DNA of 64,000 nucleotides from the NCBI GenBank assembly GCA_965243025.1, contig CBDETY010000003.1:4032001-4096000 (forward strand), written 5' to 3'. The translations under genes were made by a program, and so were the position numbers. Each line of letters starts with the position of its first letter. The first letter of the stretch is position 1. The notes beneath the pieces were generated by a model. The model saw only the letters and a list, made by a program, of their open reading frames with translations, did not search any database and was not told the DNA's origin. Below are positions 9,146-25,103 of this stretch, in pieces. The DNA comes from Candidatus Latescibacterota bacterium. Its GTDB lineage: Bacteria; Latescibacterota; UBA2968; UBA8231.

Positions 9146-11440
9146 TTGAACCTGTCCTCCATTCTCAAAAGCGGCCTCCTTCTCGCGTTGCTCGCCGCAC
9201 CTGTCCGGGCCGGGGAAGCCCCGGTCCTCCAGGCCGCCCGCGCGGCCGAGCCCCCGCGCATCGACGGCCGCCTCGACGATGCGGTCTGGAGCCAGGCCCC
9301 GGTCACGGACCGCTTCTTCCAGCGCGAGCCGGTCGAAGGAGCCCCGCCCACCGAGGGAACCGAGGTCCGCGTCCTTTTCGACGACGGCCACTTGTACTTC
9401 GCCGTGCGCTGCTTCGACAGCGAACCCGGCCGCCTGGTCGCCAACCAGATGCGGCGGGACGCCGACCTCGAGGAGAACGACAACGTCCAGATCATCCTCG
9501 ACCCCTACAACGACCGCCGCGGCGGCTTCTACTTCAGCACCAATCCCCTCGGGGCGCGCCAGGACCTGCTGCTCACCGACGAGGGCCGCACCCGCAACCA
9601 GGCCTGGGACAGCGTCTGGCGCAGCCGCGCCCGCGTCGACAGCCTCGGCTGGAGCGCCGAGGTCGCCATTCCCTTCGACCAGCTGCGCTACCCCGACAGC
9701 GAACAGGCGGTCTGGGGCATCAACATCGGGCGCGCCATACGCCGGAAGAACGAAGAGGTCTTCCTGGAGCCGCCGCCGCAGTCCTACGGCTTTTGGGGGC
9801 GCTACCGCACTTCGCGCCTGGCGGTGCTCAAGGGCCTGGGCAGGCTTCGCAGCCGGCCGCCGATGGCCGTCGTCCCCTACCTGCTGAGCGGCTCGCGGCG
9901 CGATTTCACCGGGGACGATTCCAATGAGTACGCCCTCGACCCCGGCCTCGACTTCAAGTACGGACTCACCCCCTCGCTGACCCTCGACCTGTCCTGGAAG
10001 ACCGACTTCGCCCAGGTGGAGACGGACCAGGAGCAGGTCAACCTCACCCGCTTCAGCCTGTTTTTCCCCGAGAAACGGGACTTCTTCCTCGAAGGGGCAG
10101 GGATTTTCGAGTTCGGTGAACGGGTCGAAAGGCAGGGTCTGGGAGGCCCGCCGCCCACCCTGCTGTTCTACAGCCGCCGCATCGGCATCGAGGAGGGGCA
10201 CAACCTTCCCGTGCTCGCCGGGGGAAAGCTCACCGGCCGCGCCGGACCGTACCAGATCGGCGCCCTGCGCATGACCACGCAGGCCATGACCTTCGTCGAC
10301 GAAGAGGAAAAAGACCGCTTCCTCACCGACGGCGGCGACCTCCTCGACGAGGAGCAGGCCGAACTGAGCGGGGAGGTTATCGTCGACACCTTGGAGGTCG
10401 ACGTCCTCGACACCCTCGACGTGGCCCGGACCGACTTCACCGTCCTGCGTCTCAAGCGGGACCTGCCGGGCAGCTCCAACGTCGGGCTGATCGCCATCGA
10501 CAAGCAGCCCGGCTCCGAAGCCGGCTACAACCGCACCGCCGGCATGGACTTCTCGCTGTCGCTGCTGCAGGCCGCCCTCAACCTGCGCGGCTTCGCCGCC
10601 GGAACCTGGAGCCCCGCGGCGGAGGACGGGGACGGCGCCGGCCTGCTGGAACTCGACTACCGCCGGGGCCGCTTCCGGACCAGCGTCAGCTACCTAGACG
10701 TCGAAGAGGACTTCTCGCCCGAAGTCGGCTTCGTCCCGCGCACCGGCATCCGCCGGATCAAGGGGGACGGGCGCTACCGCCCCCGGCCTGAGGTCGGCTG
10801 GATCCGGCAGTTCTCCCTCGGCCCCTGGTTCACCTACCTGACCGACCGGAACAACACCCTGCAGAGCGGGGAAGCCGGGATCCTGGCCTTCGTCAACCTC
10901 GAAGCCGGAGACTGGTTGGGTGGGCGCTACCGCCGCCGCTACGAGGTTCTGGAAGAGGCGTTCGAAATACGGGAGGGACAGGAAATCCCCCCGGACACCT
11001 ACGAGTTCGACAACTGGCATTTCAACTTCTTCCCCAGCTCGAACCGCCATTTTTCGGGTATCCTCTCCCTGGAGCGGGGCGGCTTCTTCAACGGCACGCG
11101 CAGCGGCGTTTCCGCGCGCACGGTCTGGCGCCACTTCGTTCGCCTGGAGCTGGAGGGGGATTACGCGTTCAACCGCATCGAACTGCCCGACGGCGCTTTC
11201 AACACCCACCTGTTCGGGCAGCGCTTCCTGTATTCCTTCTCCCCGGAAATGTTCGTGCGCGGTTTCCTGCAGTGGAATAGCGCCCGCGACCTGGTGGGGG
11301 GGAACTTCCTCTTCAACTACCGCTTCCTGCCCGGCAGCGATCTGTTCGTGGTCTACAACCAGGTCTGGGATACCGAGGGAGGGCTGCAGCAGGCGGACCG
11401 CTCGCTGCAGGTGAAGGTGTCCTGGTTCTGGAAGAGGTGA
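9146..11440 (+). CDS. DUF5916 / CBM9-like domain outer-membrane protein
   Basis: Signal peptide; IDGRLDDAVW (CBM9-like), WSAEVAIPF, TDFAQVETD, FFPEKRDFFLEG, LFYSRRIG; beta-barrel-like C-terminus. Confidence 0.85.
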   Translation: MNLSSILKSGLLLALLAAPVRAGEAPVLQAARAAEPPRIDGRLDDAVWSQAPVTDRFFQREPVEGAPPTEGTEVRVLFDDGHLYFAVRCFDSEPGRLVANQMRRDADLEENDNVQIILDPYNDRRGGFYFSTNPLGARQDLLLTDEGRTRNQAWDSVWRSRARVDSLGWSAEVAIPFDQLRYPDSEQAVWGINIGRAIRRKNEEVFLEPPPQSYGFWGRYRTSRLAVLKGLGRLRSRPPMAVVPYLLSGSRRDFTGDDSNEYALDPGLDFKYGLTPSLTLDLSWKTDFAQVETDQEQVNLTRFSLFFPEKRDFFLEGAGIFEFGERVERQGLGGPPPTLLFYSRRIGIEEGHNLPVLAGGKLTGRAGPYQIGALRMTTQAMTFVDEEEKDRFLTDGGDLLDEEQAELSGEVIVDTLEVDVLDTLDVARTDFTVLRLKRDLPGSSNVGLIAIDKQPGSEAGYNRTAGMDFSLSLLQAALNLRGFAAGTWSPAAEDGDGAGLLELDYRRGRFRTSVSYLDVEEDFSPEVGFVPRTGIRRIKGDGRYRPRPEVGWIRQFSLGPWFTYLTDRNNTLQSGEAGILAFVNLEAGDWLGGRYRRRYEVLEEAFEIREGQEIPPDTYEFDNWHFNFFPSSNRHFSGILSLERGGFFNGTRSGVSARTVWRHFVRLELEGDYAFNRIELPDGAFNTHLFGQRFLYSFSPEMFVRGFLQWNSARDLVGGNFLFNYRFLPGSDLFVVYNQVWDTEGGLQQADRSLQVKVSWFWKR

Positions 11441-11638
11441 GGGTCGCGTTCAGGGATGGCCGCGATTGCTGATGCCTACACATGCAAGTCACTTGCTACC
11501 CGGAAGCTGTGTGCGGGCAGCACTCAAAATCCTCCTGGAATGGTCTGGATATGTCCAGGAGCATATCCTTGAATAAGGCCAAGGACATAGGGGCAATCGA
11601 CAATTCTGTGGTGACCTCGGTTCGAAGGAATCAGCTCG

Positions 11639-13243
11639 ATGGCAACCGCACCAAAAAAACATAGAACCACCAAAGCCAAGACTAAACCGGACGACACCGT
11701 CGTTCCCGACTACAGGCCCGAGCTGTGGCGGATGGCCGACGCCCTGCGGGGCAGCATGGACGCCGCCGAGTACAAGCACGTCGTCCTCGGCCTGATCTTC
11801 CTCAAGTACATCTCCGACGCCTTCGAGGAAGCCCACGCCCAACTGGAGGCCGAGGCAGACCAGGGAGCGGACCCTGAAGACCCGGACGAGTACCGCGCCC
11901 AGAGCATCTTCTGGGTGCCGCCCGAGGCGCGCTGGACCAAGCTGCAAGCGCAGGCCCGCCAGCCCACCATTGGCCGTGCCGTGGACGACGCCATGACCGC
12001 CATCGAGCGGGACAACCCGGCGCTCAAGGACGTGCTGCCCAAGGATTACGCCCGCCCCGCCCTGGACAAGACCCGCCTGGGACAGGTGGTGGACATGGTG
12101 AGCAACATCAAGGTGGGCGGGGCCGAGGCCCGCGCCACGGACGTGCTGGGCAGCGTCTACGAGTATTTCCTGGAGCAGTTCGCGCTGGCCGAGGGCCGCA
12201 AGGGCGGCGAGTTCTACACTCCGCGCTCGGTTGTTCGCCTGCTCGTGGAAATGCTGGAGCCGTACCAAGGCCGGGTCTACGATCCTTGCTGCGGCTCTTC
12301 CGGCATGTTCGTCCAGTCGGTGGAGTTCATCCGCGCCCACGCCAGCGGCAACGGCAACGGCGGCAATGCCAGTGCGGACATCTCCATCTACGGCCAGGAG
12401 TCCAACTACACCACCTGGCGCATGGCCCGGATGAACCTGGCGATCCGGGGAATCGAGGGCCGGATCGAGCACGGCGACAGCTTCCACAACGACCGCCACC
12501 CCGACCTGCGGGCCGACTACATTCTGGCCAATCCCCCCTTCAACGTCTCTGACTGGGGCGGCGATCGGCTGCGCGACGACAAGCGCTGGGAGTACGGCGT
12601 GCCGCCCGTGGGCAACGCCAACTTCGCCTGGGTGCAGCACTTCCTCTACCACCTGTCGCCCCGGGGAACCGCCGGCTTCGTGCTGGCCAACGGCTCCATG
12701 TCCTCGAACCAGTCCGGCGAAGGTGAAATCCGCAAAAACCTGATCGAAGCCGACCTTGTGGACTGCATCGTTGCCCTTCCGGGTCAACTGTTCCGCTCCA
12801 CCCAGATACCGGCCTGCCTCTGGTTCCTGTCCCGGGGCCGCCGCAACGGAGAACACCGGGACCGGCGGGGCGCAACCCTGTTCGTCGACGCCCGCAAGCT
12901 GGGCCACATGGTGGACCGCACCCACCGCGACCTGTCCCCGGAGGACATCGCCCGCGTTGCCGACACCTATCACGCCTGGCGCGGCGGTGAGGGCACCGGC
13001 GAGTACGCCGACGTGCCCGGCTTCTGCAAGAGCGCCTCTCTGGAAGAGATCCGCAAGCACGGCCACGTCCTCACCCCCGGCCGCTACGTTGGAGCCGAGC
13101 CGCAAGAAGACGATGGGGAACCTTTCGAAGAGAAGATGGCCCGCCTCGCCAAACAATGGCGCGAGCAGCAGGCCGAGGCGAAAAAGCTGGACGCTGCAAT
13201 CGAGGCCAACCTGAAGGCACTCGGGTTCGGAGACAGTCAATGA
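11639..13243 (+). CDS. hsdM: Type I restriction-modification methyltransferase M subunit
   Basis: [52 protein letters not shown] (m6A). Confidence 0.97.
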
Positions 13244-14979
13244 ACTACAGCGACCAGGAGATCGCTCGGCAACTTCGCCTGGGCGAGGACAGCCAATGGG
13301 AATTCAAGCAGACCGAGTTTTCCGGTAGCCGTCCAAGAAGCCCGAGCCGCAATGATTGGGCGGATGAGATCGCCGCTTTTGCCAACACGGAGGGAGGCGT
13401 TCTGCTCTGCGGAGTTACCGACGAAGGGGAGGTGCAGGGCATGTCGCGGGAGCGGATTGTCGGCCTGGACTCCCTTCTGGTCGAGGCCAGTACCGACTCC
13501 ATCAGGCCGGCGGTTCGCATCAGTACCCATCACAGAGAACTGGATGGCAAGCGGTTGCTCCTGGTCGAAGTACCTCGGAGCGAATCGCAGCATGACAGCC
13601 CGGGTGGAAGCTACGTCAGGGTAGGCGGGTCAAAGCGCCGAATGACAAGCGAGGAGCGGTTGCGGCTGGCACAGCGGCGCAGCCAGGCGCGGTTCCTGTG
13701 GTTCGACAAGCAGTCCGTGCCAAACACCGGATTGGGAACGCTGGACGAAGCGCTTTGGAGACCGTTGTTGAGCGCGGAAGGCAGGGCAGATCCGGAAACG
13801 GCGCTGGAAAAAATGGGCCTTCTCGGACGGGACGAACACGATACGATGCGAGCGACCGTCGCCGGCCTCCTCTTTTGCAGTCAGGCACCGGAGGAATGGC
13901 TGCCCAACGCCTGCATTACGGCCACCCATTACCGCGGTACGGATCGGGCCTCCGGCCAACTCGACACCCAGACGATCACCGGCCCCCTCAACCGGCAAAT
14001 TGCCGAAGCTGTCGCCTTTGCCGTGCGCAACATGCGCGTCGGGGCCTACAAAGATCCGGCCCGCATGGATTTGCCACAGTACAGTTCAGAGGCCCTGTTC
14101 GAGGCCATCGCCAATGCCGTTGCCCACCGGGATTATTCGATGCTCGGCAGCCGGATTCGCCTGTCCATGTTCGCCGACCGGTTGGAAATCCAGTCGCCCG
14201 GTTCCCTGGCCAACAGCCTGACAATAGATGAGCTGGAATTCCGGCAGGCGACGCGCAACGAGGTGCTTGCCTCGGTCTTCGGACGGATGCCGACCAGCGA
14301 TATCCAGGGAGCCGGTGGCCGGGTTTTCATCATGGAACGGCGCGGCGACGGCGTCCCCGTCATCCGGCGAGAGACCCGCGAACTCGCCGGGCGCCTGCCT
14401 CGCTTTGATCTGGTTGGGGGTGCGGACCTTCGCGTCACCCTTCCGGCGGCCTCCACCGAGCCGAGTCCTGCCCGTGTTGTCGTTTCCGTATGCGCTGGCA
14501 CCGAGCCGCTTGCCCATGCGGAAGTACTGGTGCTGTTCCCGAACAAGACCTGGAAACAGGCAACAACGGATGCGCTGGGCCAAGCCGTAATCGGCCTGTA
14601 TACGGTTGATCTGCCGATGACGGTGTTCGCGGCTGCCCGCGGTTTTGCCGCCCACTGCGAACGCGAATGGCGGCCTGCTGAAGGTGAGCTCACGATTGAA
14701 CTTGAGCCGCTTCCCGGCGGCGGTTCCGTCATTCTTTCGGAAGACAGCGGCCAAATTCCGGGGCTGAAAGGATCGCTGAATCCGATTCGAGACAACCTTG
14801 ACCGGACCTATCTCTACGCCTCGAACATCGCCATCAACCAAGGCCAGCAGCAGCCGGTACATATTGTGCTCGGCGAAGACCTGCGGCTCACCGATGTCAA
14901 TGGCGTCGAGATTACAGCGCGTATCGTGGAGATCCTGGGACGATCGGCACTGGTCGGGTACCGGCCGTTCAAGCCCTAA
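13240..14979 (+). CDS. Schlafen/AlbA_2 + HATPase_c_4 (RecG-C-like) protein with an extra C-terminal beta-rich domain
   Basis: ATG at 13240 overlaps the hsdM stop; [31 protein letters not shown] (AlbA_2); [36 protein letters not shown] (HATPase_c_4). Confidence 0.85.
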
Positions 14980-15034
14980 CCAGGAGGAGCGGGATTGGTA
15001 GGTTCAAACGGGCTCTTCGTCACAGTGACTAGAC

Positions 15035-16465
15035 TTGTGGGGCGAGATGCCTGATCAGATCAGAGGGGGAATTGCGGCCGATGATGTGGTGTTGCCAACA
15101 GAAAGCCTGTACCCGACAACCTTAGGATTCGAAGATGAAAAGGTAACACTGAAAGATCTCCTGATTTATACGCGTGATGGTGAGTGGGGAGCAGGAGATA
15201 TAAAACCAGATCTTATTCCCATGCGAGTTATTCGAGGTGCTGATTTTGACCCTGTAAGCCAAGGAAATTTTGAAACTGTTCCGACTCGATACATTGAACC
15301 CTCTGCGGCTGCCAGAAAGACACTACGTCCCTGGGATATACTTATTGAAACGGCAGGAGGTGGGAGAAATAGGCCGACGGGTCGCACACTGTTAATTCGC
15401 CCCCGGATCTTGCAGAGTACGAAAATCCCGGTAACGTGCGCAAGTTTTGCCCGGTTTCTACGGATCGATGACAAGCGGGCGAATCCGGAATACATCTATT
15501 GGTTCCTTCAGTACCTTTATTCCCTAGGTGAAATGGAACGGAATCAAGTTCAGCATACAGGTGTTGCTAGATTTCAATTCACTAGTTTTGCAGAGAGCAT
15601 AAAAGTCCCTCTACTTCCTTTTTCCGAACAAGACGCCATCGCCCGTATCCTCGGCACCTTTGACGACAAGATCGAACTCAACCGGCGAATAAACGAGACG
15701 CTGGAGACGATGGCGCGGGCACTGTTCAAATCGTGGTTCGTGGACTTCGATCCGGTCCACGCCAAGATGGAGGGCCGGTGGCGGCGAGGAGATTCGCTTC
15801 CCGGCCTGCCTGCCGATTTCTACGACCTCTTCCCGGATCGGCTGGTGCCCTCCGAGTCCGGGGAAATACCGAAGGGGTGGGAAATGAAAACGGTGGGAGA
15901 GGTCGTAGACGTAGTAGGGGGAACTACTCCGAGCACAAAAGTCGTCGAGTACTGGAGTGGTGGAATCCATTCTTGGGCGACCCCCAAAGACCTCTCGAAC
16001 CTCTTTTCACCAGTACTATTGGACACCGAGCGAAAGATCACAGAAGCTGGTCTGGAAAAGATTGGATCGGGTCTTCTCCCCACTGGTACCGTGCTTCTAT
16101 CGTCGAGGGCGCCAATTGGCTACGTTGCAGTCAGCGAGGTCCCTGTCGCTATCAACCAAGGTTTCATCGCCATGCCACCAAAGGATCGGATCTCCAACTT
16201 GTTCCTGCTGCACTGGTGTAACGTATTCCATGACGAAATAGTCAACCACGCAAATGGCTCCACATTTCTCGAAATCAGCAAGGGGAATTTTCGGCGTATC
16301 CCAATGCTAGTTTTCGGAGAGTCGGTAATGAAAGCATTTGACATGCAAGTCCGGTTCCTCCATTTACGCATCGCGACCAATGAACACCAGAACCGCACCT
16401 TGGTCGCCAAGAGGGACGCGCTGTTGGCGAAGCTGGTTTCCGGAGAACTTCGACTAACGGCTTAG
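15035..16465 (+). CDS. hsdS: Type I restriction-modification specificity subunit
   Basis: [44 protein letters not shown] spacer, [29 protein letters not shown]; exact start uncertain (15035 or 15047). Confidence 0.93.
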
Positions 16466-16488
16466 ACTTCACACTTAGAAGATTGCAA

Positions 16489-16899
16489 ATGAAACACTGC
16501 TGCAAAAACTTCCGTTTTCTCGCACAAACCCACGTTGGACAGTCATCGGTGATGAACATCGATTTTCATGGGATCCTCACGAACCATCCGAGTGCCATCT
16601 CGGTGGTCATTATGCGGCGGAATGCGCCAAGGGAATCTGGAGTACAAGAATTGACCCACACTTGAACTCACCCCTAAAGGATCTATTGTTTCAAGACAGA
16701 AGACATCGCTGCTTCTTTATTGAAACTCACAGAGGAATCCTTTGAAGCAGCCAGTGAGCTTCGTCGGCTCAGAAACGACAATCGTCAGCTAAAGCAAAGC
16801 TACCGATACACTCAGATCGGCTTATGGACTGCGGCCATTGGCGTTGTTGCAAGTGTAATCATGCGATTGCTCGAAAAGCTAGGATGGATTCCTCAATAA
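16489..16899 (+). pseudogene. Probable doubly frameshifted Cys-containing membrane-anchored hypothetical gene
   Basis: Three consecutive frames join into MKHCCKNFRFLAQTH / ...AECAKGIWSTRIDP...RCFFIETHRG / SFEAASELRRLRNDNRQLKQSYRYTQIGLWTAAIGVVASVIM (C-terminal TM) stop. Confidence 0.4.
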
Positions 16900-16937
16900 G
16901 TGTAGAACCAGGCAATGGCGTCACGACGATTGGACAG

Positions 16938-17013
16938 ATGAATAACGGAGGATCCCAGCCCTGGCTGATGGCAAGGTCCTCGTCTACGAGGCACCGAGAC
17001 GTGGTGCGCCTAG
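16938..17013 (+). pseudogene. 5' remnant of rhuM/Fic-like gene (left part, interrupted by IS)
   Basis: GKVLVYEAP / DVVRL continues after the ISs as LDVPVGRETFRL, resembling the RhuM-type N-terminus. Confidence 0.45.
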
Positions 17014-18182
17014 TGTCCTGTCGTGTAAGTAACTGTACAAACAATTGAAGGTGCCGTAGGTTTCTCTTGATCCTCTTTCTGAAAGGAGAGACCTATGGTG
17101 ACGGGGCGTCCATTAACGCCGTTAGAGCTGAGTCCGTCGGACCGGGAACGATTGGAATCGATGGCCAAATCACGGAGCCTTTCCCACGGGTTGGTGCGGC
17201 GAGCCGAGATTATTCTGCTGGCCGCCGAAGGCTGGCCCAATGAAGCCGTCGCGGCCGCGGTGGGTGTGACGCGTGCTACGGTCGGCAAGTGGCGCCGGCG
17301 CTTTCTCGAAAACGGGCTCCAAGGCTTGTATGATGAGCTGCGCTCAGGGGCGCCGCGATCGATCACGGACGAGCAGGTAGCCGAGGTGGTATACAAGACC
17401 CTGAAGACCAAGCCCAAAGACCAAACCCAGTGGTCGCTGCGCTCCATGGGCGAGGAAACCGGCCTGACCAAGGATGCCGTTCATCGCATTTGGCGCACGT
17501 ATGGTTTGCAGCCCCACCGACACAAGCACTTCAAGCTTTCCACCGATCCTTTCTTTGTCGACAAAGTACGGGATATCGTCGGCTTATACCTGAATCCCCC
17601 CGAGCACGCCATGGTGCTGTGCGTGGACGAGAAGAGCCAGATCCAGGCGTTGGAACGAAGTCAGCCCATGCTGCCCCTGGGACTGGGATACGTGGAAGGG
17701 GTAACGCACGACTACAAGCGGCATGGCACCACCACCCTGTTCGCCGCACTGGACATCGCCACCGGCGCCGTGATGACCCAGTGCAAGTCTCGTCATCGTC
17801 ACCAGGAGTTCCTCCAGTTCCTGCGCCACATTGAGGCCAACGTCCCCGCTGACCTGGATATTCATCTTGTCGTCGACAACTACGCCACGCATAAGCATGC
17901 CAAGGTCAAGCGATGGCTGGCACGGCGGCCTCGATTTCACGTTCACTACACCCCCACCTATGCTTCGTGGCTCAACCAAGTGGAGATTTGGTTCAGCATC
18001 ATTACCCGCCAAGCTCTTCGCCGGGACTCGTTCCGTAAGGTGTCAGAGCTCATCGGGCGGATCGAACGCTACACGGCCAAATGGAACGCCAACGCACACC
18101 CGTTCGTCTGGACGGCTACGGCCGATTCCATCCTTGCGAAAATCAAGAGACTTTGCGAACGAATCTCTGCGACACAACACTA
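17011..18182 (+). mobile_element. IS630 family insertion sequence
   Basis: Ends CTAGTGTCCTGTCG (17010) and CGACACAACACTAG (18183) are imperfect inverted repeats with TA target in CTAG; contains a single transposase. Confidence 0.9.
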
Positions 18183-18183
18183 G
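17095..18183 (+). CDS. IS630 family transposase
   Basis: HTH N-terminus; [47 protein letters not shown] (DDE); the stop codon is the terminal TAG. Confidence 0.96.
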
Positions 18184-19740
18184 CAGGCTGTTGAAAAAGT
18201 CCTATTTCCTAATAAAAACATAGCCTCAGACGATTGCCCGTCGTACCCGCCCTTTTCTAGATTTATGAAAGATCCAAGAAAAACGAGCCGATGCCCCAAG
18301 GAGGCCGGTGATGTCGATGAGCAAACGTCGGAAAAGTCAGCAGCAGGAGATCTGGGTGCCGACCCATACCCTCCCCGAGACCCCGAGCCATCCGTTTTAC
18401 ACCCAACTCAACCGGCTGCTGGAAGAGCATGGGTTTGATTCCTTTGTAGAAGAGCAGTGCGCCCCGTATTACGCCCAGAGGTTGGGCCGTCCCAGTATTG
18501 CTCCCGGGGTGTATTTCCGCATGCTCATGATCGGCTATTTCGAAGGCCTGGGATCGGAGCGGGCCATTGCCTGGCGGGTCGCCGATTCGTTGGCTCTGCG
18601 TCGCTTTCTCGGCTACGCCCTGACCGAGTCCACCCCGGATCATTCGAGCCTGTCGCGTATTCGTCAGCGCCTGCCCGAAGCGGTGCACGAAGCGGTCTTC
18701 GACTGGGTGCTGAAGGTGTTGTCCGACCGGGACCTGCTGCAGGGAAAGACGGTGGCGGTGGACGCCACCACGCTGGAGGCCAACGCGGCGATGCGCAGCA
18801 TCGTGCGCCGGGATACGGGCCAGGGCTACCGCGAGTATCTGGAAGGGTTGGCCCGGGCCGAAGGCATTCCGGAGCCGACCCGGCAGGAGGTGGCCCGGCT
18901 CGACCGCAAGCGGGCCAACAAGGCGTCCAACCGGGACTGGGCGCATCCCCATGATCGGGAGGCCCGCATAACCAGGATGAAAGACGGCCGCACGCATATG
19001 GCCCACAAGGCCGAACATACGGTCGATCTGGACACGCAGGCGCTGGTGGCCCTGCAGGTGTGCGGCGCCGATGAAGGGGATACCGCGTCGCTGCTGTGGA
19101 GTCTGGTGCAGGCGGACCGCAGCCTGAAAGAGGTCGGTGTCGATGAGCAGATCAGGCTGAGCGAAGTGGTGGCGGACCGGGGGTATCACAGCAATGACAC
19201 GATGAAGATGCTGAGGACGGCGGAGATCCGCAGCTACGTGGCCGAACCGGATCGCGGTCGGCGCAACTGGAAGAAGGATGCGCCGGCCAAGACGGCGGTG
19301 TATGCGAATCGTCGGCGTATACGGGGAGACCGCGGCAAGAGGCTGCAGCGGCTTCGCGCCGAGCACGTGGAGCGCAGTTTCGCTCATACCTACGAAACGG
19401 GAGGCATGCGCCGCACTCACCTGCGCGGCCACACCAACATCTACAAGCGTCTGTGTATTCATGGCGGCGCCTTCAATCTCGGGCTGGTGATGCGCAAGCT
19501 CACCGGAAAGGGAACGCCGAAAGGGTTGTATGGATTGGCATCGGTTTTCTCGACTTTTGCCGATCGCGCAAACGCTCTTTTGGGTCGAATTTTCGGTTAT
19601 TTGCGATTGTTGAGCTGTCCTTTTCGGGACCATTTCTATAAATGGGAATGTTTAGCCTGATAACCGATTTTCTTGGGAAAGGAAATCATACATCCGCGAC
19701 GTCCGGGGTTTCCGGAATAACCCGGATTTTCAACGGCCTG
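18184..19740 (+). mobile_element. IS5/IS1182-like insertion sequence with CTAG target duplication
   Basis: IRs CAGGCTGTTGAAAAAGTCC (from 18184) and GGATTTTTCAACGGCCTG (to 19740); CTAG on both flanks (18180-18183, 19741-19744). Confidence 0.9.
18308..19660 (+). CDS. IS5/IS1182-like DDE transposase (DUF772 N-terminus)
   Basis: GRPSIAP...SERAIA...PDHSSLSRIRQR, AVDATTLEANA, VADRGY, HVERSFAH. Confidence 0.92.
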   Translation: MMSMSKRRKSQQQEIWVPTHTLPETPSHPFYTQLNRLLEEHGFDSFVEEQCAPYYAQRLGRPSIAPGVYFRMLMIGYFEGLGSERAIAWRVADSLALRRFLGYALTESTPDHSSLSRIRQRLPEAVHEAVFDWVLKVLSDRDLLQGKTVAVDATTLEANAAMRSIVRRDTGQGYREYLEGLARAEGIPEPTRQEVARLDRKRANKASNRDWAHPHDREARITRMKDGRTHMAHKAEHTVDLDTQALVALQVCGADEGDTASLLWSLVQADRSLKEVGVDEQIRLSEVVADRGYHSNDTMKMLRTAEIRSYVAEPDRGRRNWKKDAPAKTAVYANRRRIRGDRGKRLQRLRAEHVERSFAHTYETGGMRRTHLRGHTNIYKRLCIHGGAFNLGLVMRKLTGKGTPKGLYGLASVFSTFADRANALLGRIFGYLRLLSCPFRDHFYKWECLA

Positions 19741-19857
19741 CTAGATGTGCCTGTGGGCCGCGAGACATTTCGACTTGTCCGCCCCGACGCTTCAGAACCA
19801 AGCGCTGGTGGGCGACAGCGGGTTGGCCGCACTGGGCGTGCCGGCGGAGGCTGACGA

Positions 19858-23001
<3,144 letters not shown>

Positions 23002-23093
23002 GAGGGATGCCCGGTTCCTCTATTCAATGCTCCCCAACAGGGCCGTGGGGAATCCAAGCTGAGCCTGAATGAGTTCTGCGGGTAGAAGGCTGA

Positions 23094-23309
23094 ATGAAGT
23101 ATTCAGTGGTAGTCCATCAGGCTGAAGAAGGCGGTTTCTGGGTAGAGGTTCCGGCTCTGCCCGGCGGCTATTCCCAAGGCGAGTCGATAGGGGAAACTCT
23201 CGAAAACGTCAGGGAAGCCATCGAGCTGTACCTGGAAGTGCTCAGAGACGAAGGTCAGGACGCGCCCAGAGACACCGATGTAGTCTATCAAATAAGCGTG
23301 GCTGTGTAG
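23094..23309 (+). CDS. hicB: HicB-family antitoxin (no hicA adjacent)
   Basis: YSVVVHQAEEGGFWVEVPALPGGYSQGESIGETLENVREAIELYLE. Confidence 0.88.
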   Translation: MKYSVVVHQAEEGGFWVEVPALPGGYSQGESIGETLENVREAIELYLEVLRDEGQDAPRDTDVVYQISVAV

Positions 23310-23482
23310 CCGAACCAATGACGGCCATGCCTGTCAACACTGGTTTCCTCGTCCGGTGCATCAACACTCTTCAACCACCCCTCGAGACAAACGACAGCGC
23401 GGTGCGGGTGCTTGGGGACCGGGGATAAGCTGCACTCCGGCACCCTGCATCAGAGCATTGCTCTTTCCTCTGTTCAAAAATT

Positions 23483-23511
23483 TTGCACCTTTGCCGAGTA
23501 CTCCTTACTAT
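23483..23511 (+). promoter_or_regulatory. Sigma70-type promoter of higBA
   Basis: TTGCAC (23483-88), 17 bp spacer, TACTAT (23506-11); overlapped by a weak CTCC...GGAG inverted repeat (possible operator). Confidence 0.5.
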
Positions 23512-23562
23512 ATTTGGGAGCAATTTACATTATATCATTTGTGGGAGGATCGTTGGGCGGTA

Positions 23563-23856
23563 GTGAGAATCCTTTCGAGACGGGTGCTCAGGGATTTCTG
23601 GGTGAGGCACCCCGATGCCGAGGAGCCCCTCAATACCTGGTTCAAGAGGGTCCGCAGCGAAGACTGGTCCACTCCCGCCATCCTGCAGGAACTCTGGCCA
23701 AGGGCCAGCATCGTTGGCCGAGATCGGGCTGTGTTTCGAATCAAGGGCAACCACTACCGCCTCGTCGTCAAGGTCTCCTACCCCGGACGTGTGGTGTATA
23801 TACGGTTCGTGGGCACTCACGCCGAGTACAACCGGATCAACGTTGAAGAGGTGTAA
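23563..23856 (+). CDS. higB: HigB-family mRNA interferase toxin
   Basis: GTG start; RILSRRVLRDFW...HPDAEEPL...RAVFRIKGNHYRLVV...IRFVGTHAEYNRI. Confidence 0.9.
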   Translation: MRILSRRVLRDFWVRHPDAEEPLNTWFKRVRSEDWSTPAILQELWPRASIVGRDRAVFRIKGNHYRLVVKVSYPGRVVYIRFVGTHAEYNRINVEEV

Positions 23857-23858
23857 AA

Positions 23859-25103
23859 ATGGCAGCCATCCGACCGATCCGCACCGAGGAAGACTACGAA
23901 GCGGCATTGGCCCGCATATCGGAGCTCATGGATGCTCTTTCCCCGCCGGAGGGGCAGATCGAGGACGAAGACGATCCTGGCAGACTCGAGCTCGATGTCC
24001 TCTCCGACCTGGTTGAGCGATACGAAGACAAGCACTATCCCATCGGGCTCCCCAGTGTAACCGCCGCCATCGAATTCCAGATGGACCAGATGGGCATGAC
24101 CCAGAGGGACCTCATACCGTTCCTCGGAAGCAGCGCCAAGGTGTCCGAAATCCTGTCCGGCAAGCGTTCCATCACCATGGCCATGGCCCGGGCGCTGCAT
24201 CGCCATCTCCGGATACCGGCGGACCTGCTGCTGCAAGAGCCCGGCGCAACGCTTCCCGAAGAACTGCCCGGTTTCGAGTGGACCCGGTTTCCGCTGAAGG
24301 CGATGGCCAGGGCGGGCTGGATTCCCGACATCCCCGACCTGAAGGACCGCGCCGAGGAACTGATCGGCGGCCTGATCGATCGGGCCGGGGGACGAGAGTT
24401 CGCCACCCAACCGATGTACCGCAGGAACGACCAGCGGCGAATCAACGCCAAGACCGACGACTACGCCCTGCAGGCGTGGTGCTGGCAGGTGATCGCAAGG
24501 GCCCGGGAGCCCGCAATGAAGCCCCGCCCACCCAGCGCGGTTACCCCCGAGTTCCTGCGGGAGGTTGCCCGTCTGAGCACGTCGGAGGACGGTCCGGTTC
24601 GGGCCCGCGACTTCCTGGCCGGGCACGGCATCGGCTTGGAGTACGTGCCCCATCTGCCCCGGACCCACCTGGACGGCGCGGCCCTCCGGCTCCCCGACGG
24701 CCGGCCGGTGGTCGGGCTGACCCTTCGCTACGACCGTATCGACAACTTCTGGTTTACCCTGTTACACGAACTGGGCCACGTCGGGCTACATCTGGGCGAC
24801 GGCAGCGACGAGACCGGGTTCGTGGACGACCTCAGCCTGCGAGGTGTTGAATCCGGCGGAACCCATCCAACGGAACACGAAGCGGACCAACTCGCACAGG
24901 ACGCCCTGGTTCCGGCGAAAGTCTGGGACGACGGAACCATCCTGGAAAACCCGGGGCCGATGGCGGTGCTGCAAATGTCGTGGGAAGCCCAGGTCCACCC
25001 GGCAGTCATCGCCGGCCGTGTCCGCCATGAGTCGGGAAACTACCGGCTATTGTCTCAATTCGTGGGGACGGGAGAGGTGCGCCGGCAGTTTGAGGGAGGT
25101 TAG
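23859..25103 (+). CDS. higA: HigA antitoxin fused to an ImmA/IrrE metallopeptidase domain
   Basis: IRTEEDYEAALARI, HTH (KVSEILSGKR), LRYDRIDNFWFTLLHELGH (HExxH). Confidence 0.88.
   Translation: MAAIRPIRTEEDYEAALARISELMDALSPPEGQIEDEDDPGRLELDVLSDLVERYEDKHYPIGLPSVTAAIEFQMDQMGMTQRDLIPFLGSSAKVSEILSGKRSITMAMARALHRHLRIPADLLLQEPGATLPEELPGFEWTRFPLKAMARAGWIPDIPDLKDRAEELIGGLIDRAGGREFATQPMYRRNDQRRINAKTDDYALQAWCWQVIARAREPAMKPRPPSAVTPEFLREVARLSTSEDGPVRARDFLAGHGIGLEYVPHLPRTHLDGAALRLPDGRPVVGLTLRYDRIDNFWFTLLHELGHVGLHLGDGSDETGFVDDLSLRGVESGGTHPTEHEADQLAQDALVPAKVWDDGTILENPGPMAVLQMSWEAQVHPAVIAGRVRHESGNYRLLSQFVGTGEVRRQFEGG

Follow-up and report, generated by a model that had tools for sequence, protein, structure and literature searches.

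Bacterial proteins in which a Schlafen nuclease domain is followed by a GHKL-type ATPase were described in 2026 as a class of their own, under two names. A preprint (bioRxiv 10.64898/2026.05.29.728809) defines the "Schlatpase" supradomain as Schlafen_AlbA_2 plus GHKL (PF13749), and the example studied in the available part of its text is the SLFN-pAgo protein RzAgo, whose Schlafen-GHKL unit requires ATP-driven tetramerisation, cuts tRNA and protects against phage. According to the legend of its Extended Data Fig. 1b, the tails of Schlatpases are helix-turn-helix (HTH) domains in more than 90% of cases, followed by TPR and Ig-like domains; the available text also reports stand-alone Schlatpases in restriction-modification (R-M) operons of Poribacteria. 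The second name, pSlfn.His_Kinase_A, belongs in the excerpts of another study to the largest of its pSlfn classes (PMC13056530; Perez Taboada et al., Nat Microbiol 2026). The same excerpts describe RorSlfn5, whose C-terminal Ig-like domain is a swappable sensor of a phage tail assembly chaperone. The gene analyzed here is a member of this class. It lies in a type I R-M operon of a Candidatus Latescibacterota bacterium, within a stretch of 64,000 nucleotides of contig CBDETY010000003.1 (the window), where a stop-free open reading frame (ORF) at 13240-14979 on the plus strand encodes a protein of 579 residues (P0001). The last 175 residues of this protein, the C-terminal module (CTM), are an exchangeable unit that is found on Schlafen-GHKL, TIR, AAA_14-DUF4143 and kinase proteins.

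The window protein has the same two-domain core and the same Pfam families as the Schlatpases and RzAgo, with a Schlafen domain preceding a PF13749 ATPase in one chain, and by Pfam content it fits pSlfn.His_Kinase_A (pSlfn1, Slfn-HisKinase), for which the excerpts of PMC13056530 give 2017 members. Among its relatives, as among the Schlatpases of the preprint, are genes of Poribacteria hsd operons (L021, L042 and others). The core, the R-M linkage and the existence of Ig-like tails are thus already in print, and the statement of an earlier note, made from the letters of the window alone, that this architecture is not a named system does not stand. Unlike RzAgo, the window protein has neither a pAgo core nor an HTH, and its specific two-domain beta tail is uncharacterised in the available text of the preprint, which was the sole match of a full-text search for "Schlatpase". 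Supplementary Table 2 of PMC13056530 holds no class "His_Kinase_A.Immunoglobulin" (0 occurrences). No text was found on a tail shared with TIR, AAA_14-DUF4143 and kinase proteins, in literature searches that were not aimed at that point. New here are the CTM as a two-domain portable module, the range of its fusions and the facultative nature of the hsd linkage.

RorSlfn5 and its pSlfn5 relatives resemble the window protein in combining a Schlafen nuclease of the Ex4(E/D)xK type with a putative sensor, and the window protein likewise ends in a beta sandwich. As far as the excerpts of PMC13056530 go, pSlfn5 differs in having no ATPase, and its "pSlfn.Immunoglobulin-related" rows are about 290-460 residues long, whereas about 270 residues (a middle domain and the GHKL domain) separate Schlafen from tail in the window protein. 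The two tails are also set apart by their descriptions: integrin-ectodomain-like in the excerpts on RorSlfn5, and transthyretin-like with a second domain here.

The catalytic equipment of the protein is complete. The motif EDSQWEFK satisfies the Ex4(E/D)xK signature given in the excerpts of PMC13056530. Sixty-eight full-length sequences were aligned (the window protein and 67 ORFs of 560-600 residues from genome-scan loci, each with a Schlafen match beginning within query residue 6); E16 is kept in all 68 of them, and E21 and K23 are each kept in 66. The earlier note had called this motif intact, and so it is. The ATP- and Mg-binding N-box of the Bergerat fold has the form E...N; E288 and N292, together with H296, R297 and D298, are invariant in all 68 sequences. 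The middle region between the two domains is the best-conserved stretch of the protein, with a mean majority frequency of 0.78. A Pfam scan of the protein returns SLFN_AlbA_2 and HATPase_c_4 alone, with no helicase, ABC-ATPase or HEPN-type family, and NCBIfam has no family match to it. In the AlphaFold2 model of the full-length protein (predicted local distance difference test, pLDDT, 88.8), the N-terminal domain matches SLFN11 (2.9e-5) and SLFN13 (3.8e-5) and, more weakly, SLFN14 (1.7e-4) and SLFN5 (2.8e-4) in Foldseek, and the ATPase domain is structurally closest to histidine kinases. The top solved structure for the whole model, and its best solved relative, is DIP2311 of Corynebacterium diphtheriae, a Schlatpase-type structural genomics entry (PDB 3LMM; Foldseek E 2.1e-17 over about 415 columns), which is also found by sequence (phmmer E 3e-6, residues 29-404). 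The match to 3LMM ends at residue ~405, leaving the CTM uncovered. The PADLOC pAgo model PDLC02394 matches residues 43-405 (1.2e-16), presumably through the Schlafen-GHKL head of SLFN-pAgos.

No Pfam family covers residues 405-579. When residues 400-579 were folded by AlphaFold2 from a 21-row alignment, a confident model resulted (pLDDT 94.1, predicted TM score 0.87) with 16 strands, no helix of four or more residues and two sub-domains. No HTH is present in the tail, either in this model or by Pfam. The earlier note's description of about 170 beta-rich residues that follow HATPase_c_4 in place of a winged HTH (wHTH) is therefore borne out. The first sub-domain, CTM1, has a Foldseek TM score of 0.77 to 5aq0_A and is a predicted beta sandwich of the transthyretin/CarboxypepD_reg/Cna-B type; its similarity to the CarboxypepD_reg family PF13620, a seven-stranded prealbumin-like sandwich, is below Pfam detection for the window sequence. 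The term "Ig-like", which the earlier note applied to the module, is correct for the modelled CTM1 in the broad sense. Domains of this kind (5AQ0, 9HFJ, 8BDW) are mostly extracytoplasmic spacer or binding domains, and none of them has a counterpart of the second sub-domain, CTM2.

The two sub-domains differ sharply in conservation. Among the 68 sequences no part of the protein varies more than CTM1, which has a mean entropy of 1.40. CTM2 is among the best-conserved parts, with a mean entropy of 0.93, falling to 0.2 at residues 521-530, and in a set of 41 sequences it has 14 invariant columns. A profile of these 41 sequences gave no significant match for CTM2 in the PDB (ApaG 1xvs at E 0.85, a fluorescent protein at E 1.3), and an ESM Atlas feature search with residues 492-579 returned unnamed clusters only, at 0.83, within the chance range. 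Because CTM1 (model residues 8-93) filled the VIA-wide and Foldseek lists, CTM2 has barely been tested structurally. A PilZ-like reading of its motif was dropped, as the motif spacing, judged by eye, does not fit. The tail has no match in PHROG, and a search for a phage origin of the CTM found no relative in IMG/VR contigs, none of 54 pattern matches being confirmed. The CTM is acidic (pI 5.0), which disfavours general nucleic-acid binding.

The portability of the CTM was followed in the representatives of a whole-protein search, by Pfam families and alignments, and in genome loci. Identity of the CTM across the representatives is 43-57% (77% for one N-truncated fragment); for its places behind TIR, AAA_14-DUF4143 and the kinase and between GHKL and wHTH, the overall range is 52-84%. 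The near-invariant [12 protein letters not shown] stretch of CTM2 is shared among the fusion classes. The CTM is fused to TIR domains in P0217, P0221 and P0224, and it stands between GHKL and a C-terminal wHTH in P0190 (with DUF4062), P0225 and P0262. In P0153 (758 residues), a membrane Ser/Thr kinase, the kinase domain is followed by a hydrophobic segment (Kyte-Doolittle 2.27 over 19 residues) and then by two copies of the CTM. In P0258 (241 residues) it follows a hydrophobic N-terminus and a dockerin-like repeat. At three of 80 genome loci (L061, L067, L071) it lies behind AAA_14-DUF4143, and these genes sit amid housekeeping genes. When the CTM of P0217, one of the TIR proteins, served as query, 2187 proteins were found at E<=1e-3; among the 120 matches listed, 101 have Schlafen and GHKL, 9 GHKL only, 8 TIR and 2 none of these. 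Identity between the CTM of P0217 and those of Schlatpase proteins reaches 84%. A variant of 407-408 residues that consists of the middle domain, GHKL and CTM without a Schlafen domain was also seen (L028:6665-9534; P0322, P0323, P0363, P0392); at L028 it begins about 30 nucleotides past hsdM.

The origin of one such fusion can be suggested from its two halves. In five Poribacteria genomes (G001-G005) a Schlatpase ORF of 585-587 residues has an end that is 64-79% identical to residues 170-373 of P0217, and genes termed TIR-X on the same contig, a few kilobases away, match residues 1-185 with 51-71% identity. Since its halves correspond to two separate genes of such operons, P0217 looks like a recombinant of two R-M-operon cargo genes, in which the N-terminus of an operon TIR-X gene has been joined to a Schlatpase tail. 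Each of these five genomes thus carries the TIR half and the CTM half in separate genes; at L021 and L042, TIR-X and Schlatpase genes belong to one hsd operon. Five pairs of TIR-CTM and Schlatpase-CTM proteins, with CTMs about 80% identical, have equal "longest contig" values (11665, 15272, 10329, 6779 and 518957), which suggests that the two proteins of each pair share a contig. A metagenome scan with P0217 for a locus with both kinds of gene gave two distant TIR relatives only.

The Poribacteria operons are cargo-rich and co-directional (L021:6167-18537 and L042:6188-18193; also L079, L025, L064 and L038). Their order is hsdM, Schlatpase with CTM, hsdS, one or two TIR-X genes, a gene for TIR with AAA_21/AAA_15 (556 residues), a DUF4276 gene (216-217 residues) and hsdR. 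The TIR-X proteins have 503-512 residues, of which the C-terminal ~350 are without a Pfam match.

A module that moves between effectors could serve to assemble them. The CTM might gather effector domains or anchor them at some conserved structure of the cell; sensing of the trigger would then fall to another part, for instance the GHKL or the middle domain. Effectors of the Schlafen, TIR, kinase and AAA+ types are activated by oligomerisation, and these are the partners to which the CTM is observed to be fused. The strong conservation of CTM2 with its stretch spanning the fusion classes, and the closely similar CTMs of the five pairs above, would also suit a common scaffold. The variability of CTM1, in contrast, is what would be expected of a recognition surface, and in RorSlfn5, the sole characterised analogue in the excerpts of PMC13056530, the beta tail is the sensor. 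On balance a scaffold function seems rather unlikely. When a complex of two copies of residues 400-579 was predicted, the outcome was "no answer" (score 0.00, the mark being 0.42), which is neutral on self-association.

Relatives of the window protein are numerous and widely distributed. An indexed protein search found 4200 proteins at E<=1e-3, a recurrence far beyond chance; the 120 matches listed all carry both Pfam domains, and 118 of them are 545-700 residues long, two being longer. A separate search gave 413 clusters (50% identity) at E<=1e-30. A genome scan with the tail confirmed 253 relatives, the best 80 of which were analyzed as loci and typed with tblastn, the queries being the domains of the window protein and the Hsd proteins encoded beside it. 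These 80 comprise 72 with the full Schlafen-GHKL-CTM gene, four cut by a contig end, the Schlafen-less L028 and the three of AAA_14 type. They come from at least ten phyla (Gemmatimonadota, Latescibacterota, Poribacteria, Chloroflexota, Acidobacteriota, Pseudomonadota, Verrucomicrobiota, Nitrospirota, Rhodothermota, Binatota), and since these are intermixed in the protein tree, the gene has been transferred horizontally. The genome of the window itself has one copy.

In the window the gene lies downstream of hsdM and upstream of hsdS. Its start codon (ATG, from 13240) and the stop codon of hsdM (TGA, 13241-13243) overlap in the context caATGAac, as the earlier note had read it. The same arrangement recurs among relatives. 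Of the 58 loci that count as well flanked, with 2 kb or more upstream and 3 kb or more downstream, 26 have Hsd matches, HsdM being present in 25 of them, and in 16 loci the HsdM match ends between -10 and +60 nucleotides from the start of the Schlatpase gene. On a tree of 68 proteins the R-M label changes 13 times, with at least 11 changes forced by supported branches; shuffled labels give a mean of 22.8 changes, and none of 500 shuffles was as low as the observed number. The count of switches is approximate because some rows without R-M have short flanks. The co-occurrence with hsd genes that the earlier note proposed to look for is thus real and far above chance; at the same time the linkage is facultative and labile. 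No hsd genes are found at 32 of the 58 loci, with flanks of up to 9 kb. The place of the gene in the operon varies as well, being M-X-S in most cases, S-X-R in L056, L062 and L072, and X-M-S-R in L069. The nearest relatives of the window protein are L004, which is linked to R-M (91% identity), and L001 and L002, which are solitary beside a DUF6785 gene and have CTMs 89% and 87-88% identical to that of the window.

These data bear on the idea that the protein guards the restriction enzyme. PrrC and RloC are anticodon nucleases linked to type I R-M systems, with an ABC-type ATPase head and a C-terminal anticodon-nuclease domain. A latent RNase gene inside a type I hsd operon and the notion of a second line of defence are common to them and to the window gene. 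The discussion section of PMC13462974 mentions PrrC. In a guard of this type the protein would be kept latent by the HsdM/S/R enzyme, to which its CTM would be docked, and the trigger would be a phage anti-restriction protein that disables the enzyme. The ATGA overlap, the proximity to hsdM and the clustering of the R-M label on the tree are in keeping with it. The domains are unrelated to those of PrrC and RloC, however, no PrrC-type family being detected by Pfam; the linkage to hsd is facultative here instead of constant; and the solitary nearest relatives, the repeated switching, the unfixed slot, the absence of hsd genes from more than half of the well-flanked loci with their mostly metabolic neighbours, and the presence of the same CTM on AAA_14-DUF4143 proteins amid housekeeping genes all speak against a dedicated partner. 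Such a guard is quite improbable. Because the linkage is facultative and labile and the slot unfixed, these genes are better regarded as exchangeable cargo of mobile R-M operons. The functional coupling to hsdM proposed in the earlier note, and with it the sensing of R-M inhibition, is not supported; its broader proposal of a nuclease-ATPase-sensor causing abortive infection fits the published RzAgo and RorSlfn5.

The neighbours of the solitary copies were examined by a Pfam scan of 122 ORFs at 31 of the 32 hsd-less loci, L073 being omitted as a near-copy of L052. They are chiefly metabolic or housekeeping genes (PurL, PurT, Cpn60, TrkH, transporters), with a minority of defence-like or mobile genes: a MazF-type toxin at L001, an Eco57I type at L080, an HNH at L059, transposases, and at L014 a second Schlatpase and AbiEi. 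At L041:1452-12916 the Schlatpase with CTM lies inside another defence-like cluster, of an SNF2/ResIII helicase with NOV_C, DUF1156, and DUF499 with an N-terminal Swt1-like HEPN. At L022:5946-9534 it is split in two by a DDE transposase gene that runs in the opposite direction. In a Dehalococcoidia/Chloroflexota clade (L018, L031, L043, L044) hsdM and the Schlatpase gene stand about 630 nucleotides apart, possibly with an extra small gene between them, and in L018, L031 and L043 the Schlatpase gene is followed by a short second copy of the HsdM C-terminus.

The many solitary copies amid metabolic genes invite a different explanation, in which the protein would be a regulatory or housekeeping nucleic-acid-processing ATPase outside defence and a mere passenger beside R-M. 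Database names such as "putative DNA binding domain-containing protein", "predicted HTH transcriptional regulator" and "ATP-dependent DNA helicase RecG" point the same way, and the excerpts of PMC13056530 put the share of pSlfn genes without defence genes nearby at 30.4%. Neither an HTH nor a helicase domain is present in the protein, however, its nuclease and ATPase motifs are intact, and its tail is common to TIR effectors. The patchy, phylum-mixed phylogeny, the copy split by an insertion sequence (IS) at L022 and the single copy in the window's own genome are typical of an accessory defence gene. This explanation is very unlikely.

The reading to which we incline, with a slight balance of probability in its favour, is that the protein is a self-contained abortive-infection effector of the Schlafen tRNase type, with the CTM as its input module. 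By analogy with published relatives, the steps of its action may be outlined. The Schlafen domain, with E16, E21 and K23, would be a latent RNase, most likely one that cuts tRNA. Binding of ATP by the GHKL domain, at the N-box E288/N292, would lead to oligomerisation and thereby to an active Schlafen nuclease. The CTM, which would take the place of the usual winged HTH as the input part, is inferred to bind a ligand related to infection, more likely a protein than a nucleic acid, and the nuclease would be released in response. The gene itself would travel as cargo in a mobile type I R-M operon; in the window it would share a transcript with hsdM and be translationally coupled to it, but its product would act independently of R-M. 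Relatives with defence-context neighbours other than hsd (the MazF-type toxin, AbiEi, Eco57I-type and DUF1156/DUF499/HEPN genes) are in line with such a role.

Several observations weigh against the effector reading. Two of the seven systems tested in the excerpts of PMC13056530 were protective, neither of them a Schlafen-HisKinase fusion. Over the 68 sequences the CTM is roughly as conserved as the catalytic domains, with CTM2 among the best-conserved parts. The pSlfn5 sensor, as excerpted from the same study, is the divergent part of its protein, so that a conserved ligand or a structural role fits the CTM better than an arms-race sensor does. The occurrence of the CTM in apparently extracytoplasmic proteins (P0258, P0153) implies that the module is not specific to defence and, together with the conservation of CTM2, keeps an assembly or adaptor role open. 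The hsd-less loci with their largely metabolic surroundings weigh against the effector reading as well.

A wider proposal concerns the CTM in general, and we put it forward tentatively, as possible though doubtful. The CTM may be an undescribed portable input module, made of a variable transthyretin-like sandwich and a near-invariant beta domain, through which interchangeable effectors (Schlafen-GHKL RNase, TIR NADase, AAA_14-DUF4143 ATPase, membrane Ser/Thr kinase) would answer one conserved cue, and which would be shuffled in mobile type I R-M operons across many phyla.

The features of the locus are collected in Table 1.

Table 1. Genes of the type I R-M operon in the window, and domains and motifs of the Schlafen-GHKL protein
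Feature	Position	Strand	Evidence
hsdM, type I R-M methyltransferase subunit, 534 aa	11639..13243	+	N6_Mtase 1.7e-105, HsdM_N 6.6e-28; PADLOC MTase_I 1.8e-215
Schlafen-GHKL ("Schlatpase") gene with C-terminal beta module, 579 aa	13240..14979	+	Pfam, sequence search, AlphaFold2
Schlafen/AlbA_2 nuclease domain, residues 16-136	13285..13647	+	Pfam SLFN_AlbA_2 (PF04326) 9.7e-22, 78.2 bits vs cut-off 25.3
Catalytic motif EDSQWEFK, E16-x4-E21-x-K23	13285-13308	+	translation
Middle alpha/beta region, residues 137-300, Schlafen-to-GHKL linker	13648..14139	+	inside 3LMM match, E 2.1e-17
N-box E288/N292, just upstream of HATPase_c_4 match	14101-14115	+	68-sequence alignment
GHKL-type ATPase, HATPase_c_4 (PF13749), residues 303-401	14146..14442	+	Pfam 8.4e-19; histidine-kinase structural matches
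CTM1, transthyretin/CarboxypepD_reg/Cna-B-like beta sandwich, residues 405-493	14452..14718	+	AlphaFold2 + Foldseek
CTM2, eight strands, near-invariant motif around R522[11 protein letters not shown], residues 494-579	14719..14976	+	pLDDT 95-98
hsdS, specificity subunit, 476 aa, two target-recognition domains	15035..16465	+	Methylase_S 3.7e-29, 2 stretches; PADLOC Specificity_I 5.3e-93
IS630-family transposase, between hsdS and hsdR	17095..18183	+	NCBIfam transpos_IS630 4.5e-82; DDE_3 4.6e-23
Second transposase (DUF772 + DDE_Tnp_1_6), between hsdS and hsdR	18308..19660	+	DUF772 2.1e-20
hsdR, restriction/translocase subunit, 1047 aa, all domains present	19858..23001	+	TIGR00348 3e-176; HSDR_N, SWI2_SNF2, T1RH-like_C

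The hsdM, hsdS and hsdR genes of the window form a complete set, each of full length by Pfam, NCBIfam and PADLOC. Two unlike IS transposase genes, absent from the earlier note, lie next to each other in the interval between hsdS and hsdR (17095-19660) and may uncouple hsdR from the rest of the operon. A minus-strand ORF at 18263-19633, which has no Pfam match, was dropped in favour of the plus-strand transposase ORF. Downstream of hsdR there is a HigB/RelE-like toxin ORF (23356-23856, 166 residues, with a Pfam match to residues 88-161 only), directly followed by a 414-residue ORF without a Pfam match (stretch 23356-25103). The G+C content is 0.54-0.57 across 14-18 kb, compared with 0.65-0.71 in the 0-14 kb upstream, and it is mixed downstream (0.58-0.71). 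A promoter and terminator scan of 11000-23500 gave counts at or below the means of shuffled sequences, and no tRNA genes that could mark island borders were found in 1-40000 of the window.

Bacterial Schlafen nucleases have been seen as antiviral effectors only since 2025-2026, and for their largest class, Schlafen-GHKL, the available literature yielded no trigger and no stand-alone defence phenotype. The locus is a clear case of genes embedded in a type I R-M operon as exchangeable cargo, and not as dedicated partners of the restriction enzyme. The CTM is compact and confidently folded, and its identity is high even where it has passed between Schlafen, TIR and other effectors; the proteins that carry it represent a natural series of chimeras for sensor-effector modularity. 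Since the module is swapped across effector types, its ligand would explain the activation of several classes of effector.

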